Below, piece by piece: positions 553-43,724 of a DNA stretch of 64,000 nucleotides. Source of the stretch: a bacterium (GTDB lineage Bacteria; UBA8248); assembly GCA_965207065.1 (NCBI GenBank), contig OZ242260.1:320001-384000 (forward strand), in the 5' to 3' direction. The translations under genes and the position numbers were made by a program. Below the pieces are notes generated by a model. It searched no databases, had not been told where the DNA came from, and worked only from the letters and a program-made list of their open reading frames with translations. The number at the start of each line of letters is the position of its first letter. The first letter of the stretch is position 1.

Positions 553-1688
553 TGGTTGAACACCTCTTGCGCTGCGGTGAGGCCGCGCCCTCTATCCAGT
601 GAATAGCCCAGATCGGCCAGGGTCGACTCCAGCGCGCCGACCGCGGCCAGCACGTCGGAGGAATCCACGTAACCCAGGTGACCGATACGGAAAATTCTGC
701 CGCTCAGGACATCCTGACCGCCGGCGATGGTCACCCCGTGCGCATCCTGCATCCTCAGGGGAATCGCCTTCCCGTCCACTCCCTCCGGCACGCAAACGGC
801 GGTGAGGGACTCGCTCTTCAAGTCCCGTGGGAATATGGTCATCCCCAATGCCTCGACGGCCGCCCCCGTCGCCCGCGCCAGCAGCGCATGCCGCGCGAAG
901 ACGTTCTCCAGCCCCTCCTCGCGCATCATGTCGAGCGCGACCGCCAGACCCGCCAGAAGCGAGATCGCAGGGGTCCAGGCGGTGGTGTTCTTCATCTGGC
1001 TCTTTCGCTCGATTTCGAGGTCGAAGTAATACTTCGGCGAGGTCGATTCCGAAGCGGCGCGCCAAGCCCGCTCGCTCAGCCAGACGAAGGCCAGCCCCGG
1101 CGGGAGCATGAGCGCCTTCTGGCTCCCCGTGATCACGGCGTCCAGGTCCCAATCCTCGGTCTTGAGATCGTACACGCCAAGAGCCGTGATGGCGTCCACC
1201 ACCACAAGCGTATCGGGCGATCGCTCGCGCACCACTCTCGCGACGGCCTGCGTGTCGTGCTTGGCGCCCGTGGAGGTCTCGCTCGCCTGCATCAGCAGGG
1301 CCTTGTGCCCTCCCCGCTCGAGGCGCGCCTCCAGAACATTCAGATCGACCGAACGGCCCCATTCCACCTCCAGGACGTCCGCCTCGACCCCGTACGCCGC
1401 GCAAAGCTCCGTCCAGCGCTCGCCGAACTTGCCGCCCTCGATCACGAGCGCGGAATCGCCCGGCGAGAGAAGGTTCGCCACCGCCGCCTCCATGCCGCCC
1501 GTACCCGAAGCGGCGAGGGTGATGACGTCGCCGCTCGTCTGGAAGAGCCATTCGAGGCCGCGCCGCGCCCCTTCGAAGTGCGCCTCGAACTCCCGTGTCC
1601 GGTGGTGAATCAGGGGCCGCGCCATCGCTTCGAGCACCCGGTGGGGAACCGGCGTGGGACCGGGGGCCATGAGGTGGTGCTTGTTCAT
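549..1688 (-). CDS. Class V PLP aminotransferase (alanine-glyoxylate/serine-pyruvate family)
   Basis: LMAPGPTPVP, SGTGGMEAAVAN, ETSTG, VDAIT and GSQKALMLPPGL motifs; coupled to serA. Confidence 0.92.
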   Translation of the reverse strand: MNKHHLMAPGPTPVPHRVLEAMARPLIHHRTREFEAHFEGARRGLEWLFQTSGDVITLAASGTGGMEAAVANLLSPGDSALVIEGGKFGERWTELCAAYGVEADVLEVEWGRSVDLNVLEARLERGGHKALLMQASETSTGAKHDTQAVARVVRERSPDTLVVVDAITALGVYDLKTEDWDLDAVITGSQKALMLPPGLAFVWLSERAWRAASESTSPKYYFDLEIERKSQMKNTTAWTPAISLLAGLAVALDMMREEGLENVFARHALLARATGAAVEALGMTIFPRDLKSESLTAVCVPEGVDGKAIPLRMQDAHGVTIAGGQDVLSGRIFRIGHLGYVDSSDVLAAVGALESTLADLGYSLDRGRGLTAAQEVFNQ

Positions 1689-1892
1689 TTCTCGCTCTTT
1701 CCCAAATGTGTGTCGTTTCGGACGGACGCGCGGCTACGCCCCAAGGATATACCATCCCCCGCCAAACCCCTCAAGCGATATCGTCTGGAAAGCGGGGCTA
1801 TGCGTAAAGGAACGAGCGCAAGAAACGGATAAACGCGCCTCTTTTCGTGAATATTTATAAGGCTGTTCGTGAACGTCCTTGCCACAGGAAGC

Positions 1893-2023
1893 GGGCGCTT
1901 CACGACGCGCCCCTATGGGAGAATCGTCGTAGGGGCAAGGCCCCTGTGCCTGCCCGGCCCTGCGTCTTTCCTACGAGGGACAACCACGGGGGGCAAGACA
2001 ACCCAGAAAGGTTGTCCTGCTAC
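1893..2023. repeat. REP-like palindrome cluster (GTAG type)
   Basis: gggcgcttcacgacgcgcccctatggg and gtaggggcaaggcccctgtgcctgccc; near-identical units recur at 51171-51360. Confidence 0.65.
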
Positions 2024-2049
2024 AAAACCACCACAACATATCCACACAC

Positions 2050-2079
2050 AAAAAAACCGGGGGGCCGAAGCCCCCCGGT
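2050..2079 (-). terminator. Rho-independent terminator of porin A
   Basis: accggggggc-ttcg-gccccccggt stem followed by a T run on the minus strand. Confidence 0.9.
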
Positions 2080-2120
2080 CGTCGTCGCGTCAGGTAAGGA
2101 CGCGTACGTCCTTCGTGCTG

Positions 2121-3338
2121 CTAGAAGATGTGGCGCAGCGTCCAGCCGACCGCCCAGCCGTCTTCCGCTTCAGGACCATCGACCGCTCTGCCGTAATCGC
2201 CGCGCAGAATAACGGCGCCCACACCGCGAAGCTCGAGATTCGAGTGGATCTTCCACTTGAAGCCGGCGTTGAGCTCGGTGCCGTATTCCTTCGCGTCCAT
2301 CGTGTCCGCCGCGAGGGAAGGTTCGGCGGAATTGTAAAGGGATACGCCGCCACCCAGCGTCAAGGTCTTGCTGACTTTGAAATCGGCCAGCCCCTCGATC
2401 ACGGTCGCGCCGTTCAAGCTGCGCAGATGCACGCTTCTGATGTTATTGCCCAGAGTCGTCCAGCGGCGCGAAGTCATGATGTGGCCGCCCACGAACCAGC
2501 CGGAGCCACCTTCCTGTGGCGTATTGAAGCGGCCGTCTTCGTTGGCTTTGGTGCCGTCATTGCCGGAGAGCATGGTGAGGTTGCCGCTCAGCTTCAGCTT
2601 GCCGAGACTCGCGGAAGTCCTCAGCAGGACCGCCCAACCAGAGAGTTCTGCGCCGCTTGAGAGGTCACCCTCCTGGATGACGACAGAACCGTTCACGTTG
2701 AGGATGCCCACCTTGGTCTTGGCGTTCAAACCGAGGAAGCTGTAGTCATAGCCGCCGGCCGCTGCGTCTCTCGAGTTGGCCACCCACGGCGAAACCGTGA
2801 GAGTGGGGGACAATTTAAAGCTCAGGCTGGCGTAATAATCCTTCGCATCGTCGTTTTCTGGGCCGGCGTCTTCATTCGCGCTGGTCATGAATGCGCTCAG
2901 CGAGATGTTCTTGCTCAGCTTGCCGTAGAGCGCAATGCCAGGCTCACGATGACGGCCGCTGCTGTCGTAAATTTCCTTGTCCGGAGAGAAGTAGTCCGTC
3001 CGGCCCATGCGGATGCGGAGCGCGCTGCCCGGAACCGCGAAGTCGAGCACCCAGCGGTTGACGCCGACGGTCTGCCGGCCGGGGCCGATTGCGAAGCCAC
3101 CGTTCGCGCTTACGAACTCGGGCTCCCACACGGCCGTAACGGCGCCGTTCTTCGCCGTGAAGCGCGGACGAATGAGCGCGTCCAGGTATCTATCCTTGTC
3201 TCCATCGTCTCCTTCAACGGCTTCACTGGAGCCACGCACCCGGTAGAAGCCGCTGAACTTCAGATCGGCAGCGTACGTGGGCGCAGTAAATGATACGACG
3301 AGCGCCAGCGCAAATAGAGCTAACAGAATTTTCCTCAT
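2121..3338 (-). CDS. Outer-membrane beta-barrel/porin-like protein, paralog A
   Basis: Sec signal peptide (MRKILLALFALALVVSFTAPTYA), alternating amphipathic strands, C-terminal Phe (LRHIF); paralog of 6653..7936. Confidence 0.8.
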   Translation of the reverse strand: MRKILLALFALALVVSFTAPTYAADLKFSGFYRVRGSSEAVEGDDGDKDRYLDALIRPRFTAKNGAVTAVWEPEFVSANGGFAIGPGRQTVGVNRWVLDFAVPGSALRIRMGRTDYFSPDKEIYDSSGRHREPGIALYGKLSKNISLSAFMTSANEDAGPENDDAKDYYASLSFKLSPTLTVSPWVANSRDAAAGGYDYSFLGLNAKTKVGILNVNGSVVIQEGDLSSGAELSGWAVLLRTSASLGKLKLSGNLTMLSGNDGTKANEDGRFNTPQEGGSGWFVGGHIMTSRRWTTLGNNIRSVHLRSLNGATVIEGLADFKVSKTLTLGGGVSLYNSAEPSLAADTMDAKEYGTELNAGFKWKIHSNLELRGVGAVILRGDYGRAVDGPEAEDGWAVGWTLRHIF

Positions 3339-3592
3339 GTGTATTTCTCCTCATCGAGGTTTCAAAAAAATGTTGCCGCCTTCCTTCGATTTAATGTCTT
3401 GGTTGTTAAATGCTTCTGCATCTGTGCTTCGTCGTCTGCAACAGGGCTTCCCGTTCTCGCATCACCCCCTCTCCTCAATGCTGCCCCGTACGTCGACAAG
3501 TTTCTATCGAGCGATCTGATTATTGCCGCTTATATAGACACTATCCCGCTAAAGAAAATAGTCATTCCATTCCCCATTTCTCAAAGAATAGA
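3339..3592 (-). repeat. Long 5' leader/promoter of porin A; left arm of an imperfect inverted repeat
   Basis: Reverse complement aligns with 6423-6652; includes a perfect 29-bp match (3424-3452 vs 6537-6565). Confidence 0.9.
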
Positions 3593-3869
3593 GATGATAT
3601 GATTTAAAAGCTAAAACGCCGACAATCATGCGCATGGATGCGCTCATATAATATAAATATATGTTTTTAATTGATTTATAATTACATTTTCTTCCGCGTT
3701 GCCCCTTGCGCCATCGCCAGATTTGTGCTGGAATGCGCTCTCAGTTGATGCAGGACGTATGCGTTTTGATGACGTATTTTGACGGGAGCGCCGCGCCGGA
3801 GCATGCGGATGGGCGTTCCCGCAGACCGCCGCAGGCATGCGGTTTGATGACACACCGGAGGGAGGAACC

Positions 3870-5054
3870 ATGCCGAGGAGAAGCGAATTCAGGCTCACCA
3901 AGCGCGCCGTAGACGCGCTCGAAACCGAACGCCGCGACGCCCTGTTCTGGGACCGGGATCTGGCCGGATTCGGGGTGCGCGTCCATGCCACGGGACGGAA
4001 GGCTTTTGTCGCGCAATCGAGAGGCCCCGGGGGGATAAAACGCGTGACCCTGGGCCGTGACGGGGAGATGTCGTGCGAGGAGGCGAGGAGGCAGGCCGCC
4101 ATCGTCATCGACCGCATTAAAAGCGGCGAGGACCCGGTCCCGAAGCCGCCTGCGGCGGAGCCGACAGTGGCCGTGCTCGCCGAGCGCTTCATGCGCACTT
4201 ACGTGGAGAGACGCCTCAAGCCGGGCAGCGTCGTGGAGTACCGCACCATGCTGGACAAATATATCCTGCCGGCCCTGGGGGGGATGGCGCTGTCCGGGGT
4301 CAGGCGGGCGCAAATCTCCGCGTTTCATCACGGCATGCGCGGCATGCCGAGCCGGGCGAACACGTCGCTCCACGTCCTCTCCCGGATGTTCAGCCTGGCC
4401 GAGGCGTGGGACCTCGTCCCGCCCGGACGGAATCCGTGCAGGGGAGTGCCGCTATACAGAACGCGCTCGCGCGAGCGGTTCCTGACGACGGAGGAATACC
4501 GCCGCCTGGGCCGGACGTTAAAAGAGGCCGAGGCGGACGGCTCGATCTGGCCGCCCGCGATCAAGGCGATCCGGCTGCTCATGCTGACCGGATGCCGGAG
4601 GAACGAGATACTGAACCTTAAGTGGGACGATGTGGACCGCACGGCGGGCGTTCTGAGGCTGAAGGACGCCAAGGCGGGCCCCCGCATGGTTCCCCTGACG
4701 AATCCCGTGCGCAGGGTTCTCGAGACGCTGCCCCGGAAGCGGGGCGAGCCGTGGGTGATCCTCGGGCAAAAACCGGGCCGGAACCTGCAGAGCCTCTATT
4801 ACTACTGGCGGCCCATACGGGAGCGGGCGGGTCTCTCCGACGTGCGGATCCATGACCTTCGCCACTCGTTCGCTTCGCGTGCGCTGGCGCTGGGCGAGAG
4901 CCTCTACACGATCGGCAAGCTGTTGGGACACGCGACGGTGCCGACGACGGCGCGCTACACGCATCTGATGCTCCGGGCCGAGAAGGATGCGGCCTCCCGT
5001 GTGGGGGGAAGCATCGGCGTTCACCTGACGAACGAGAAGGAGGAACTTGAATGA
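3870..5054 (+). CDS. Tyrosine recombinase/integrase 1 (N-terminal arm-binding DUF4102-like domain)
   Basis: LTKRAVDAL...FWDRDLAGFGVRV N-terminus; catalytic TGCRRNE, KAG, HDLRH, LLGH, TARY; GGAGG RBS before ATG 3870. Confidence 0.93.
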   Translation: MPRRSEFRLTKRAVDALETERRDALFWDRDLAGFGVRVHATGRKAFVAQSRGPGGIKRVTLGRDGEMSCEEARRQAAIVIDRIKSGEDPVPKPPAAEPTVAVLAERFMRTYVERRLKPGSVVEYRTMLDKYILPALGGMALSGVRRAQISAFHHGMRGMPSRANTSLHVLSRMFSLAEAWDLVPPGRNPCRGVPLYRTRSRERFLTTEEYRRLGRTLKEAEADGSIWPPAIKAIRLLMLTGCRRNEILNLKWDDVDRTAGVLRLKDAKAGPRMVPLTNPVRRVLETLPRKRGEPWVILGQKPGRNLQSLYYYWRPIRERAGLSDVRIHDLRHSFASRALALGESLYTIGKLLGHATVPTTARYTHLMLRAEKDAASRVGGSIGVHLTNEKEELE

Positions 5055-6220
5055 AGAAGCCGGGCACGATGGTGCTGTCGAGCCGGATGGTGGAGAAGTT
5101 TGTCGTGGAAAAAGACACGGTGTACTGGGATAGTTACGTCACCGGCTTCGGCGTCAGGGTGTATCCGAGCGGGAGCAAGGTCTACATCGCCCAGGCGCGG
5201 GGGCCCGGGGGGCCGAAGCGCGTGACGATAGGCCGCCACGGGGTGATCAACGCGGATGAGGCGAGGAGGCGCGCGGCGCTCGTCGTCAATCGCATCAAGT
5301 CGGGCGAGGAAGCGGTTCCGAAACCGATGAAGCCCGTGGCCGGTCCCACGGTGGCCGAAGCCGCCGCGCGGTATCTCGCCGAGTACGTGGAGGTGCGCTG
5401 TAAGCCGCACACCGCCGCCATGACCCGGTCTCTGCTCGGAAGGCGCATCCTGCCCGCCCTGGGCGGGACGCCGCTCGTGGTGGTGGAGCGCGCGCAGGTG
5501 GCGGAACTGCACCAGAGCATGCACGAGACGCCCCCGACGGCGAACAGGACAGTCGGCATCCTCTCCGCGCTATACCGGTATGCCGAGAGGTGGGGCCTCA
5601 TTCCCGAGGGAGCGCCGAACCCTTGCCGCGCCGTCGTCAAATTCCCCAAGCGGCAGGGGGAGCGTTTTTTGACGGATGAGGAGTTCATCCGCCTGGGACG
5701 CACGCTCGACGAGGTGGAGAGCGGTAAGCCGAAGTGCGCGAACGCGGTGGCGGCGATCAGGCTTCTGGCCCTGACGGGTTGCCGGAAGAGCGAGATACTC
5801 ACCCTGCGCTGGGAGAACGTGGCGCTGGAAGAAGGTGAATTGAGACTGCCCGATTCCAAGACGGGCGCCCGCGTGGTCTCGCTCCCGCCGCAGGCGGTCG
5901 CGCTCCTGGCCGCCCTTCCCCGGGAGGAGGGGAATCCCTGGGTAATTCGCGGCAGGAAGCCTGGCGTGCGCCTGAGGAACATCTACGGCGTCTGGTACTC
6001 CGTCCGCGCTCGGGCGGATCTCGATGACGTGCGGCTCCACGATCTCCGCCATTCGTTCGCGTCGCGGGCGCTCGCGCTGGGCGAGAGTCTTCCGATGATC
6101 GGCAGGCTCCTGGGGCACAGCCGGATCGAGACCACGGCGCGCTACGCGCACCTCGCGCGCGATACCGCCCACGAGGCGGCCGAGCGGGTTGCGGCGAGCA
6201 TCGAGAAAGACATACTATGA
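5051..6220 (+). CDS. Tyrosine recombinase/integrase 2, paralog of integrase 1
   Basis: YWDSYVTGFGVRV; TGCRKSE, KTG, HDLRH, LLGH, TARY; ATGA overlap with integrase 1. Confidence 0.93.
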   Translation: MKKPGTMVLSSRMVEKFVVEKDTVYWDSYVTGFGVRVYPSGSKVYIAQARGPGGPKRVTIGRHGVINADEARRRAALVVNRIKSGEEAVPKPMKPVAGPTVAEAAARYLAEYVEVRCKPHTAAMTRSLLGRRILPALGGTPLVVVERAQVAELHQSMHETPPTANRTVGILSALYRYAERWGLIPEGAPNPCRAVVKFPKRQGERFLTDEEFIRLGRTLDEVESGKPKCANAVAAIRLLALTGCRKSEILTLRWENVALEEGELRLPDSKTGARVVSLPPQAVALLAALPREEGNPWVIRGRKPGVRLRNIYGVWYSVRARADLDDVRLHDLRHSFASRALALGESLPMIGRLLGHSRIETTARYAHLARDTAHEAAERVAASIEKDIL

Positions 6221-6400
6221 GAGGCAATCGACGGGGTGGACGAAAAAGAATTGATTTGCCTGACCGGATTCGTGGCTCGTTTTTTGGAAAATTTCTGGAT
6301 TCGGGGTTTGACAAATCAGGGTATCTTCGCTAATGCTATTGATATGGGGAATAGGACGACTGATTCCGAAAATTTTTTGCGAATTCACATGGGAAGTTTG

Positions 6401-6430
6401 TTGACAAAACATGAATTTTCCGTCTATTCT
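6401..6430 (+). promoter_or_regulatory. Sigma70-like promoter for porin B
   Basis: TTGACA (6401-6406), 18-nt spacer, TATTCT (6425-6430). Confidence 0.6.
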
Positions 6431-6652
6431 TTTGTGAAGTAATGAATATCACATAAGCGGGAAACTGCTGGTTCGCTCGATAGAACCTTAGTCGAATTAC
6501 GGGGTGGTGCTTACGGAGAGGGGGTGATGCGGGAGAGGGAAGCCCTGTTGCAGACGACGAAGCACGGATACAGAAGCATTGGACAACCAGGACATTAAAT
6601 CGAAGGAATACGGCAACATTTTTTTGTGAAACCTCAATGAGGAGAAATACAC
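6423..6652 (+). repeat. Long 5' leader of porin B; right arm of the inverted repeat
   Basis: Homologous to the reverse complement of 3339-3592; ends in the shared atgaggagaaatacacATG. Confidence 0.9.
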
Positions 6653-7936
6653 ATGAAGAAACTTCTGTTAGCACTATTCGCGATTGCGCTCGTCGTGGCG
6701 TTTACCGCGCCCTCGTATGCGGCCGACTTCAAAATGAAAGGTTTCTACCGTGTTCGCGCTTTCAGTGGCAGCCTCAATCAGGCCGATAATGATAACGATG
6801 ACGGATCCGCCAGTGGTATCGACTCGCTGATAAGGCCGAACTTCTTGACGAGTGTCGATGGCGGCAAAATCAAGGCCAGATGGGAAATCGACTGGTATGA
6901 AAACGATAACTCCGCGAACGCGAATGCGGTCTGGGGACAAAACGGCGGCAGCCGCATCGGCGTGGGAACGAACCGCTGGCATATCGATTTCGCGATTCCG
7001 GGCAGTGCGCTCCGCATGCGCTTGGGCCGCGAGGACTACACCTCCCCGGACAAGGAAATTTTCGACTCCGCTGGGGCCAATCGTAAGCCTGGCATCGGGG
7101 TCTATGGCAAGCTCAGCAAGAACATGTCGCTCAGCATGTTCATGGTTCGGGCTGGGGCGAGCGGCTCAAACCGCACAGTCGAGACTGAGGATAAAAACAA
7201 AGACAGCTACTTCGCGGCTTTGGGCATCAAGGTTTCCCCGACGACCACTCTTACTCCTTGGGTGGCCCTGCACCGCGACGGCGAGCATAAATCCCTCACG
7301 TACGCTGCCCTGCACGCCAAGGCGAAAGTCGGCATCTTCAGCGTGAACGCCACCGGCGTTACGGTGGGTGGTGATTATTCAGATACAATGGATGCTTCCG
7401 GCTGGGCGTTTCTGTTGAGAAACACAGCCAGCCTGGGCAAATTGAAGCTCATGGCCAACCTGACGATGCTCTCGGGCGATGACAACGAAACTGACAAAGA
7501 AGTAGGCGAGTTCAGTCTATTGTTTCCCAACGCGGGCGATATCGTCAGTGGTGTTCTCATTTCGGGCCGCGGCAACATCATGCTCATTGACGCGAATGAA
7601 CGCATCAGGGGGAACACAAGCAATGGGAAGCTGACGAAGAACAAAGGAAAAATGGGGTTGACAAACGGCGCGGTCATCGGCGAACTCGGACTTAAGTATC
7701 AGGTCAGCAAGACCTTGAATCTGGGCGCCGGGATATACATCTACCAGTCTGCGGAAGATGACAGTGAAGGCGACAGTGACTTCGGCACCGAGTTCGACTT
7801 CGGCATGCAATGGAAGATTTATTCCAATCTGGCGCTTCGCGCGGGATTCGCGTACTTGGCGGCCGGCGACTACGGCACGAACAACGACAAGGAAGACTCC
7901 TGGATGACCGCAGTTTCTCTGCGCCACATCTTCTAG
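6653..7936 (+). CDS. Outer-membrane beta-barrel/porin-like protein, paralog B
   Basis: Signal peptide; shared blocks with paralog A (GFYRVR, NRW.DFA.PGSALR.R.GR.DY.SPDKEI, YGKLSKN, ASLGKLKL, LRHIF). Confidence 0.8.
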   Translation: MKKLLLALFAIALVVAFTAPSYAADFKMKGFYRVRAFSGSLNQADNDNDDGSASGIDSLIRPNFLTSVDGGKIKARWEIDWYENDNSANANAVWGQNGGSRIGVGTNRWHIDFAIPGSALRMRLGREDYTSPDKEIFDSAGANRKPGIGVYGKLSKNMSLSMFMVRAGASGSNRTVETEDKNKDSYFAALGIKVSPTTTLTPWVALHRDGEHKSLTYAALHAKAKVGIFSVNATGVTVGGDYSDTMDASGWAFLLRNTASLGKLKLMANLTMLSGDDNETDKEVGEFSLLFPNAGDIVSGVLISGRGNIMLIDANERIRGNTSNGKLTKNKGKMGLTNGAVIGELGLKYQVSKTLNLGAGIYIYQSAEDDSEGDSDFGTEFDFGMQWKIYSNLALRAGFAYLAAGDYGTNNDKEDSWMTAVSLRHIF

Positions 7937-7976
7937 GAGCTTGATTGACTTCGCGTCCTCACCTGACGCGACCATA

Positions 7977-8009
7977 ACCGGGGGGCTTCGGCCCCCCGGT
8001 TTTTTTTTT
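7977..8009 (+). terminator. Rho-independent terminator of porin B
   Basis: Same stem-loop as 2050-2079, followed by a T run. Confidence 0.9.
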
Positions 8010-8319
8010 GTGTGTGGACAACTGTCATAATCGAGTACAAGAGCAGAAAATTCTCCGTCTCTCGCTCCTGTGCCGCTTATGCCTTTTCTTATTCGTGCCT
8101 GTCTGTCGCTGGATCACCATGTACCGTTTTCGGTACGCGCGGGGCATGGGGACGCCGCCATTATTGAGTCGTCGGTTATCCCGACAAAAAACCGGCCGCG
8201 ACGCCCTCCATTGGCGCCGGCGATGTCTCCACGGCAGACGCCAGAACCTGATCGCTGGCTTCCGCGTCACGACGCAGATGGCCTTTTGTGCGATTCCCGC
8301 AATCTGGCGAGATGGCGGT

Positions 8320-8950
8320 TGAAGAGTGCTTTCGTCTCCCTCGTTCCACCAGTTCCATTGCCAGACGCCTTCAATCAGGATGGAACGCAGGCGCTTCTGT
8401 CCGACAGGCCGGAGCTGGGCGCGGACCAAGCTGTCGCCGCTATGGCGGACGACGGGCGAAAGGCTCAGACAGGAGGCCACCTTCTTGACGCGGTTGAAGC
8501 GCTCCGGCGCAAATATCTCGGCCAAGAACCTCGCCGACCCCGCCAGGTTGCATCAAGCATTCGTAACGGTCCGGATGCAGACGCTTCGTCTCTCGCCTGA
8601 CCTCACGTTTCAAGAACCGATGTTCTTCCTGGCAATACTCGCGGATCATTGATATTCAGGGCATCGTTCATGCTTAGGCGCCAGGGGTAGCGCCTCAAGA
8701 TCGTCCCCTACGGTACTTACCCATTGCCTCGTGCCCAGCGGCTCCTCGATGCCCGATGTCGGCAGAAATTCCTTTATCTTCTGCTTGATCCCTGGTCCCG
8801 GCCTAGGACATCCGCTTGCAACGCCGTACAAGTGCTCGATTACCTTCTTCATTGAGAGAGGAAACAGCTACGGACTCCCGGCGAAGCAAATGGCCGGTTG
8901 CTCCGCGTCGATTCGGTCGTTTCAACCTGCCGCCGCGGTAGGAGCTTCAT
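8320..8950 (-). pseudogene. IS110-family transposase relic, multiple frameshifts
   Basis: Fragments across frames: DRIDAEQ (KTDRIDA-like), IKQKIKEFL..GIEEP, AEIFAPERF..VASCLSLSPVVRHSG..GQKRLRSILIEGVW. Confidence 0.7.
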
Positions 8951-43591: not shown

Positions 43592-43603
43592 TTTAGATTG
43601 AAA

Positions 43604-43680
43604 GTTCGCTGGGGGTGCCTTGCAGGCTGAGAACAAACCCTTCGAACCTGAACCGGTTAGAGCCGGCGTAGGGAAGCGAC
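43604..43680 (+). promoter_or_regulatory. TPP riboswitch (THI element)
   Basis: ggggtgc..ggctgaga..accc..gaacctgaaccggttagagccggcgtagggaa consensus, upstream of thiC. Confidence 0.95.
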
Positions 43681-43724
43681 AGGTCTTCCACATCCTCTGG
43701 TTTCCCTTCGCCACAAGTGAATAA

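Follow-up and report, generated by a model that had tools for sequence, protein, structure and literature searches.

Does the DNA between two divergent porin genes turn around, and does its orientation decide which porin is transcribed? The question is raised by a locus in a 64-kb stretch of DNA (the window: positions 320,001 to 384,000 of contig OZ242260.1, assembly GCA_965207065.1) from an uncultured member of the Nitrospinota, in which the porin genes porA and porB point away from each other and enclose two tyrosine recombinase genes, int1 and int2. All coordinates are positions in the window, and G000 denotes the genome that holds it, a single 4.48-Mb contig. An initial annotation had proposed that a cassette of ~2.8-3.1 kb inverts between the leaders of the two porin genes and would thereby hand a strong promoter from one porin to the other. 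We found that the segment 3593-6422 inverts by site-specific exchange inside a 10-bp core, TCTATTCTTT, and that both states exist in nature. The locus is likely a site-specific inversion switch that moves one promoter between the two divergent porin genes.

Both orientations of the segment occur in public sequence data

Logan contigs of four public runs (X1-X4) were aligned to positions 1500-8600 of the window. X1 and X2 represent one sample (share 0.99 of the sampled words), X3 is a second sample of the same study, and X4 is a relative with a share of 0.26. In the RNA runs X13 and X16-X20, the share of the sampled words was 0.05-0.09. In X1 and X2, the contigs match the window perfectly, with 0 other letters in the flanks, and have their ends precisely at 3592/3583 and 6432/6423. 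The two junctions are represented by unitigs of 50 nt each, 3563-3612 and 6403-6452, with depths of 10 and 9 in X1 and of 9.5 and 7.8 in X2, against 16-20 for the flanking contigs of the two runs. Such contig breaks and half-depth junctions are what two coexisting orientations would yield; the 10-bp repeat alone is no cause of the breaks because the contigs are built on 31-letter words.

The flipped joint itself was read in X3, one of the four runs. A 376-nt contig follows the window from 6133 to 6422, then jumps to 3592 and runs toward lower coordinates on the other strand, reaching 86 letters past the junction, with 10 letters fitting both sides (depth 4.1). This contig is the flipped junction, in which the porA leader adjoins the TTGACA end of the segment. 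X4 gives a hint only: one contig seemingly stops at the left core, and no joint was found among the matches listed. The initial annotation was thus right that the cassette inverts between the leaders and takes the TTGACA -35 element along, as the X3 joint, the breaks in X1 and X2 and the opposite orientation in six related species agree. The exchange does not take place between the long leader repeats, however, but in the 10-bp core at their inner edge.

The segment lies at the center of an inverted duplication

The locus consists of the following parts.

2041..2056, no strand: outermost stretch of the left duplication arm; its 16 nt match 8003-8018 in inverted orientation (100%)
2055..2080, minus strand: intrinsic-terminator-like hairpin and T run 3′ of porA; inverted homolog of 7976-8001
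2121..3338, minus strand: porA, a 405-amino acid (aa) beta-barrel porin of the outer membrane that has a signal peptide and ends in F
3339..3582, minus strand: porA leader, 244 nt, conserved upstream/5′UTR-like; remains with porA on flipping
3583..3592, minus strand: left recombination core TCTATTCTTT, including TATTCT, the -10 of the porin promoter
3593..6422, no strand: invertible segment of 2,830 bp, defined by the unitig ends, the X3 joint and the opposite orientation in relatives
3593..3869, plus strand: int1-proximal segment end, homologous to the left end of a multicopy two-integrase element
3870..5054, plus strand: int1, an arm-type tyrosine recombinase; reading frame open from 3837
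5051..6220, plus strand: int2, another arm-type tyrosine recombinase, which shares 52% identity with int1
6221..6422, plus strand: int2-distal segment end, including the -35 TTGACA at 6401-6406
6423..6432, plus strand: right recombination core TCTATTCTTT, with the -10 TATTCT at 6425-6430
6433..6652, plus strand: porB leader, homologous to the porA leader in inverted orientation but lacking ~30 nt internally
6653..7936, plus strand: porB, a 427-aa porin paralog of porA
7976..8001, plus strand: terminator-like hairpin 3′ of porB; inverted counterpart of 2055-2080

The gene order, leaders, terminators, TCTATTCTTT boxes and TTGACA at 6401-6406 all lie where the initial annotation had placed them, as does the longest exact match between the two leaders, 29 bp in inverted orientation (3424-3452 / 6537-6565). 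That annotation had also let the homology end at TCTATTCTTT; the breakpoints do fall there, but the duplication as a whole is larger than it had claimed, extending from 2041 to ~3592 on one side and from 6423 to 8018 on the other. Identity between the arms is 91% over 112 nt in the leaders, 93% over 55 nt in the terminators, perfect in the outermost 16 nt and 75-83% in the porin coding DNA. The TCTATTCTTT 10-mer occurs twice in the window, both times at the switch, and eight times in the 4.48-Mb genome. Because of this rarity, and because inverted copies also flank the integrases in other species, the paired cores are not a chance occurrence.

Related species carry the segment in the opposite orientation

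We compared the locus with those of related genomes, using as anchors the flanking genes FL, encoding a class-V aminotransferase, and FR, encoding an FG-GAP/LpoB-like protein. The compact loci show two gene orders.

G000: FL, porA (minus), int1 (plus), int2 (plus), porB (plus), FR
G011, G012, G013, G014 and G017: FL, porin (minus), int2 (minus), int1 (minus), porin (plus)

Among the five compact loci of the second order, only those of G011 and G012 showed FR on the downstream side. Together with a variant in G015, six related species carry the cassette opposite to G000 relative to the same flanking genes. In G014, the closest relative of G000 (integrases 95% identical), the colinear alignment ends at 3592 and the cassette aligns only in reverse. 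Exactly two inverted cores flank the integrase pair in each of the six compact loci (G000 and five species), and genomes with the pair at this locus always have int1-int2 between the cores. In G015, the cores are ~20.8 kb apart and enclose FR, and an IS66 transposase gene separates int1 from its core; this switch may be enlarged or disabled. A DruA-like (Druantia) fragment is also inserted between int1 and its core in G015 (L027/L028).

In three complete genomes, G022, G002 and G008, one porin gene alone lies between FL and FR, with no integrase in the vicinity, and the fragmented genomes G018 and G019 have no integrase within 7 kb upstream of the porin. Such single-porin loci without integrases appear to be the ancestral state and are no argument against switching. 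A divergent porin pair lacking integrases, which the initial annotation had named as the sign of a simple insertion into an old inverted duplication, was found in none of the relatives. On short contigs of G021 and G005, int2 adjoins the porin, and one of the 78 metagenome loci (L050) reads porin, core, int1, int2.

The inversion could be real and nevertheless a fixed polymorphism, in which two lineages keep stable opposite orientations after rare past events. Each assembled genome does show one orientation, and both forms were met only as mixtures in metagenome-type runs of one study, whose contigs give no inversion rates. We regard this explanation as unlikely, however, since in X1 and X2 the depth is about halved at junctions whose flanks show 0 other letters, and since the same core is found in seven species together with intact recombinases under purifying selection, which is unexpected for an idle switch.

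The crossover core separates the -35 from the -10 element of the predicted porin promoter

To see what the inversion does to transcription signals, the 330 nt upstream of 17 porin genes were aligned. In all seven genomes with a porin pair, the two leaders start being homologous exactly at TCTATTCTTT. Only two sequence classes exist above the core, and each pair genome has one porin of each class. Class 1 contains GTTTGTTGACAAA, followed by TATTCT inside the core at a spacing of 17-18 nt. It is also found upstream of the porin in all three single-porin genomes, and therefore the TTGACA class is the native promoter. TTGACA-N17/18-TATTCT is kept in 10 of 10 class-1 sequences, with exactly one porin per genome behind it: the FL-side porin in G011, G012, G013, G014, G017 and G015, and the FR-side porB in G000. 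Class 2 corresponds to the cassette end next to int1, where no comparable -35 faces the porin. The boundary between leader-type and cassette-type sequence falls at the identical base in seven species, between -35 and -10.

In a pattern scan of 1900-8200, TTGACA-18-TATTCT (6401-6430; 10 of 12) was the best sigma-70-like site. The initial annotation had put the TTGACA inside the cassette, which is correct; the -10 lies in the core, and the crossover site splits the promoter. In the assembled orientation, porB is predicted to be ON behind the complete promoter, and porA to be low or off for want of a good -35.

These features suggest how the switch would work. Strand exchange inside the TCTATTCTTT core flips 3593-6422 together with int1 and int2. 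The -35 TTGACA would ride on the segment, and the -10 TATTCT in the core would remain before both porins. The porin facing the TTGACA end would have a full sigma-70-type promoter, that is, porB in the assembly and porA after a flip, and the other porin would be left with a -10 only. The outcome would be an either/or choice of the major porin and never none, because porA and porB are the sole members of their family in the genome.

We also considered that the segment flips while both porins are transcribed from promoters in their own leaders, in which case inversion would have little effect or act mainly on integrase expression. The porA leader does contain TTGAGA-18-TATTTT, and the leaders are long and conserved. 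Yet TTGACA-N17/18-TATTCT is present in all 10 sequences of its class and is the sole upstream candidate in the three single-porin genomes, the porB leader has lost the region of the weaker site and keeps the split promoter, and all seven genomes have the crossover precisely between -35 and -10. Transcription from own-leader promoters therefore seems quite improbable.

The porin leader, ~220-250 nt, is highly conserved across species, including the single-porin genomes (leaders in L022-L031). RNAalifold on 14 leaders gave a covariation term of -0.32 and compensatory changes in 2 of 36 pairs, and an Rfam scan found no family in either porin leader. A structured leader RNA is thus unsupported by RNAalifold covariation, save for a possible anti-Shine-Dalgarno hairpin. 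CCTC in the leader pairs with GAGG of the ribosome-binding site before the ATG, which might form a hairpin for translational control. Leaders are homogenized within genomes, probably by homologous recombination, because the two leaders of G014 are identical to each other.

int1 and int2 are intact and conserved at the locus

The products of int1 and int2, ~390 aa each, contain an Arm-DNA-bind_3 (DUF4102), a SAM-like and a Phage_integrase domain. Phage_integrase scores 80.8 bits in int1 and 73.4 bits in int2 (Pfam cut-off 27.1), and Arm-DNA-bind_3 scores 44.4 and 32.0 bits, respectively (cut-off 27). The likely start of int1 is the ATG at 3870 behind GGAGGGAGG, and the start of int2 overlaps the int1 stop (ATGA). 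Residues R243, K268, H328, R331, H354 and Y363, which by their motifs would be the R-K-H-R-H pentad and the tyrosine nucleophile, are invariant among 12 int1 homologs; int2 has the matching motifs TGCRK, SKTG, HDLRHS, LGH and ARY. The ratio of nonsynonymous to synonymous substitution rates (dN/dS) is 0.15-0.44 for int1 and 0.14-0.40 for int2 (21 pairs each), which indicates that both genes evolve under purifying selection at the porin locus. In trees with only the mobile copies of G000 as outgroups, the porin-locus integrases of seven species form their own clades (int1 100/99, int2 85/86). The closest relatives with an annotation, at 46% identity, are genomic-island integrases from Rhodobacterales replicons, where they occur as single 'site-specific integrase' genes.

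Because the two genes are linked translationally through the ATGA, always occur as a pair, are both catalytically intact and are conserved at the locus in seven species, int1 and int2 would most likely be the invertases. They may act together, by analogy with XerC/XerD or Tn554 TnpA/TnpB.

The integrase pair belongs to a multicopy family

G000 contains 10 int1-int2 pairs in total. The nine outside the window (C1 ~13990, 70295, 898241, 1131188, 1555279, 1925757, 2368902, 3128227 and 4432466) form units of ~2.6 kb that begin ~210 nt before int1 and end at the int2 stop. Three subfamilies can be told apart, with 85-98% identity within each. No long inverted repeats surround the nine pairs, where only chance-sized 10-11-mers were found, and the 78 metagenome loci gave only two weak repeats of 60-67 nt. 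We therefore rejected the other copies as further switches; without long flanking repeats they look like plain mobile units. The composition of the nine units suggests a multicopy mobile element made of two arm-type tyrosine integrases only. Homologs of int1 are present in 17 of the 22 other genomes of the genus, paired with int2 wherever inspected, and in two genomes of another family of the phylum (67% identity, 23-30 matches). The pair is visible at 47 of the 78 metagenome loci.

Sequence likenesses connect the porin-locus pair to these units. The motif CGTATGCGTTTTGAT(T/G)AC lies just upstream of int1 in all copies, and twice in the porin copy. The int1-proximal end contains the conserved motif CGTATGCG(T/G)TTTGATGAC at 3750-3773 and 3828-3851, two copies that may serve as arm or operator sites. 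At their left terminus the mobile copies have an imperfect dyad, GAATTTCCGAAAAATTC, that can be aligned with ATTTCTCAAAGAATAGAG on the porin side; the int1-side end of the segment is therefore the old element end, and the core is where that end meets the porin leader. The other segment end consists, in G011, G013 and G017, of native promoter-upstream DNA to within ~30-230 nt of the int2 stop. Judged from these likenesses, the porin-locus pair is a conserved offshoot of the multicopy two-integrase mobile element. A third int1-like fragment (67% identity) lies downstream of the FR-side porin at the contig end in G017 (L025, 8948-9487) and may be another copy of the mobile pair beside the switch.

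In terms of phage-type recombination, the arm-bearing element end would be attP-like and the native promoter site attB-like. Since homologous leaders follow both sites and the products equal the substrates, the reaction would be reversible and need no directionality factor. It is possible, and we propose it tentatively, that a domesticated two-integrase element works here as a heteromeric invertase on attP-like and attB-like sites, with the -10 as the crossover, forming a self-regenerating, factor-independent toggle that leaves exactly one of two antigenically distinct porins expressed.

With 10 pairs at 60-70% identity in the genome and an int1-side end resembling the left end of the mobile copies, the flip might instead be catalyzed in trans by another recombinase, such as one of the nine other pairs, the local pair being inactive. 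This is very unlikely, as the local pair forms its own clade, is kept in seven species with dN/dS well below 1, and is always present between the cores in genomes with the pair locus.

Outer repeats and flanking DNA

How the inverted porin duplication arose is not explained by a simple insertion at one site, because the int2 stop borders on native upstream DNA and the second core on the left end of the element. The outer ends of the duplication (2041-2104 / 7952-8018; terminators and TCCACACACAAAAAAA) are 93-100% identical despite the diverged coding DNA, and in G013 (L026) a B-type porin lies on the FL side, opposite to G000. The conserved outer repeats and the G013 arrangement hint at occasional inversion or conversion of the whole unit via the outer repeats.

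A transposase fragment of the IS110/IS116/IS902 family (Transposase_20, E 1.1e-10) is located at 8025-8525 on the minus strand, directly after the porB terminator and before FR. A tRNA-targeted island was considered and rejected, as no tRNA gene was found in the window. The only Rfam family in the window at gathering score is a thiamine pyrophosphate (TPP) riboswitch (RF00059, 72 bits) at 43601-43691 on the plus strand.

porA and porB are diverged paralogs of one porin family

The two inverted paralogs share 46% aa identity, 48% inside the predicted strands and 35% outside, and 31 of the 32 gaps lie outside the strands. Neither protein matches a Pfam family above threshold. NCBIfam NF033939 DESULF_POR1 (outer membrane homotrimeric porin) matches only the N-terminal half, at 77 bits for porB and 38.7 bits for porA, and its cut-off of 250 is not reached; porA and porB are distant relatives of this family at best. 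The AlphaFold2 model of porB is an 18-stranded barrel (predicted local distance difference test 71.6, predicted template modelling (TM) score 0.72). Its top Foldseek matches are Campylobacter jejuni MOMP (5ldt, E 3e-16), AlgE and OccK chains, with TM 0.55-0.63, probability 1.00 and 9-15% identity. The model thus suggests that porB resembles 18-stranded channels (C. jejuni MOMP, AlgE, OccK/OprD-like) in fold only.

porA and porB are the only two members of the porin family in G000, and the porin is present in all 22 other species of the genus. The porin tree contains at least two deep types, and the second copy varies between species. This diversity of the partner porin is consistent with selection for surface variety. 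G020 has four porin-like genes in two tandem, non-divergent pairs (C1 ~2441330-2444637 and ~2848518-2851936); they match the query in two pieces (residues 1-280 and 370-427) and look like longer variants with an inserted middle.

Discussion

Several points weigh against the proposed promoter switch. The flipped junction was seen directly in one contig only, that of X3 with a depth of 4.1, and the coexistence of two orientations in X1 and X2 is read from graph breaks and half depth, no contig across the alternative junctions being among the matches listed for these runs. All runs with a high share come from one study, and X1 and X2 are possibly the source sample of the assembly. The fixed porA leader holds a weaker site, TTGAGA-18-TATTTT (9 of 12, 3584..3555 on the minus strand), which is conserved in relatives and could give basal porA expression, and the ON/OFF assignment follows from consensus matching. 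Finally, the nine further int1-int2 pairs in the genome could act in trans.

The proposed switch follows a known principle, in which site-specific inversion brings a single promoter before one or another surface-protein gene. Excerpts of PMC2268961 and PMC11868660 describe promoter addition in Mycoplasma (M. agalactiae vpma with Xer1, M. pulmonis vsa and M. bovis vsp), and the porin locus resembles these systems in its one promoter, alternative surface genes, tyrosine recombinase, short site, conserved 5′ region and absence of information loss. According to the same excerpts, the Mycoplasma loci have a single Xer-like recombinase beside the locus, a site downstream of a complete promoter and lipoproteins as targets. 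In contrast, the porin switch has two arm-domain integrases inside the segment, a site between -35 and -10 and two porins as targets.

Another known case is E. coli fimS with FimB and FimE, which is treated along with other invertons in excerpts of PMC11868660 and PMC6083910. As at the porin locus, a promoter segment is flipped by tyrosine recombinases, two paralogous ones per switch; fimS as described there is an ON/OFF device of ~300 bp with the whole promoter inside. The porin switch would differ in being either/or, 2.83 kb in length, with the recombinases inside and the promoter split. FimB and FimE are encoded outside the fimS segment and lack an arm-binding domain.

In Campylobacter fetus, sapA inversion is RecA-dependent and takes place within long conserved 5′ regions. 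The porin locus is similar in its single promoter on an invertible segment, opposed surface-protein paralogs with conserved 5′ ends and an either/or outcome; its crossover does not range over long homologous 5′ regions but falls in 10 shared letters at the repeat edge. RecA recombination between the ~250-nt, 91%-identical inverted leaders, with the integrases as passengers, could draw on the long inverted homology and on the identical G014 leaders, which show recombination or gene conversion between leaders, but it is scarcely credible, as the crossover lies in 10 identical bp at the innermost margin of the repeat and the boundary is at the same base in seven species, 10 bp being far below the homology that RecA requires.

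Among elements with tandem tyrosine recombinases, Tn554 has tnpC as its third gene. Excerpts of PMC3414803 describe several mobile elements with multiple recombinases, namely RIT (recombinase in trio), Tn554 TnpA/TnpB tandems and BIM. The two-integrase element is like RIT and Tn554 as presented there in that neighboring tyrosine recombinase genes, paralogs of one another, are mobile together and present several times in a genome. It differs from RIT, which has three genes, as all 10 copies in G000 have two, and one of these copies acts as a fixed inversion module; relatives of Tn554 include a recombinase of unusual length (611-828 aa), which in Actinobacteria is extended N-terminally by >400 aa. 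BIM ('bipartite module') was considered as a two-gene relative and rejected, since it consists, according to the excerpts, of one recombinase and an unrelated protein (PMC3414803).

In domain architecture, int1 and int2 are like the IntSXT-type (DUF4102) island integrases, whose arm-binding, core-binding and catalytic domains are described in excerpts of a tyrosine recombinase survey (PMC8138268). There, single genes integrate and excise islands, arm domains are tied to mobile elements, and simple recombinases are named as switches; an arm-type pair in an inversion switch is unlike these integrases. The literature searched, supplements not covered, contained no description of a switch with two arm-type integrases, of phase variation in Nitrospinota, or of an element made of two arm-type integrases. 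New here are the arm-type integrase pair inside the segment, the -10 in the crossover core, the visible origin from a mobile element and a new host phylum for such a switch.

Pathogens and gut bacteria are well known for phase variation through inverted promoters, usually with simple recombinases and ON/OFF control. The porin locus would be a tractable example of recombinase domestication in which the same genomes still hold the mobile two-integrase element, with ~9 further copies in G000, and it offers a compact candidate for a two-state genetic switch. It also gives a first indication that a major surface protein varies in uncultured Nitrospinota; the obvious selective reasons for this would be phage receptor function or host recognition.

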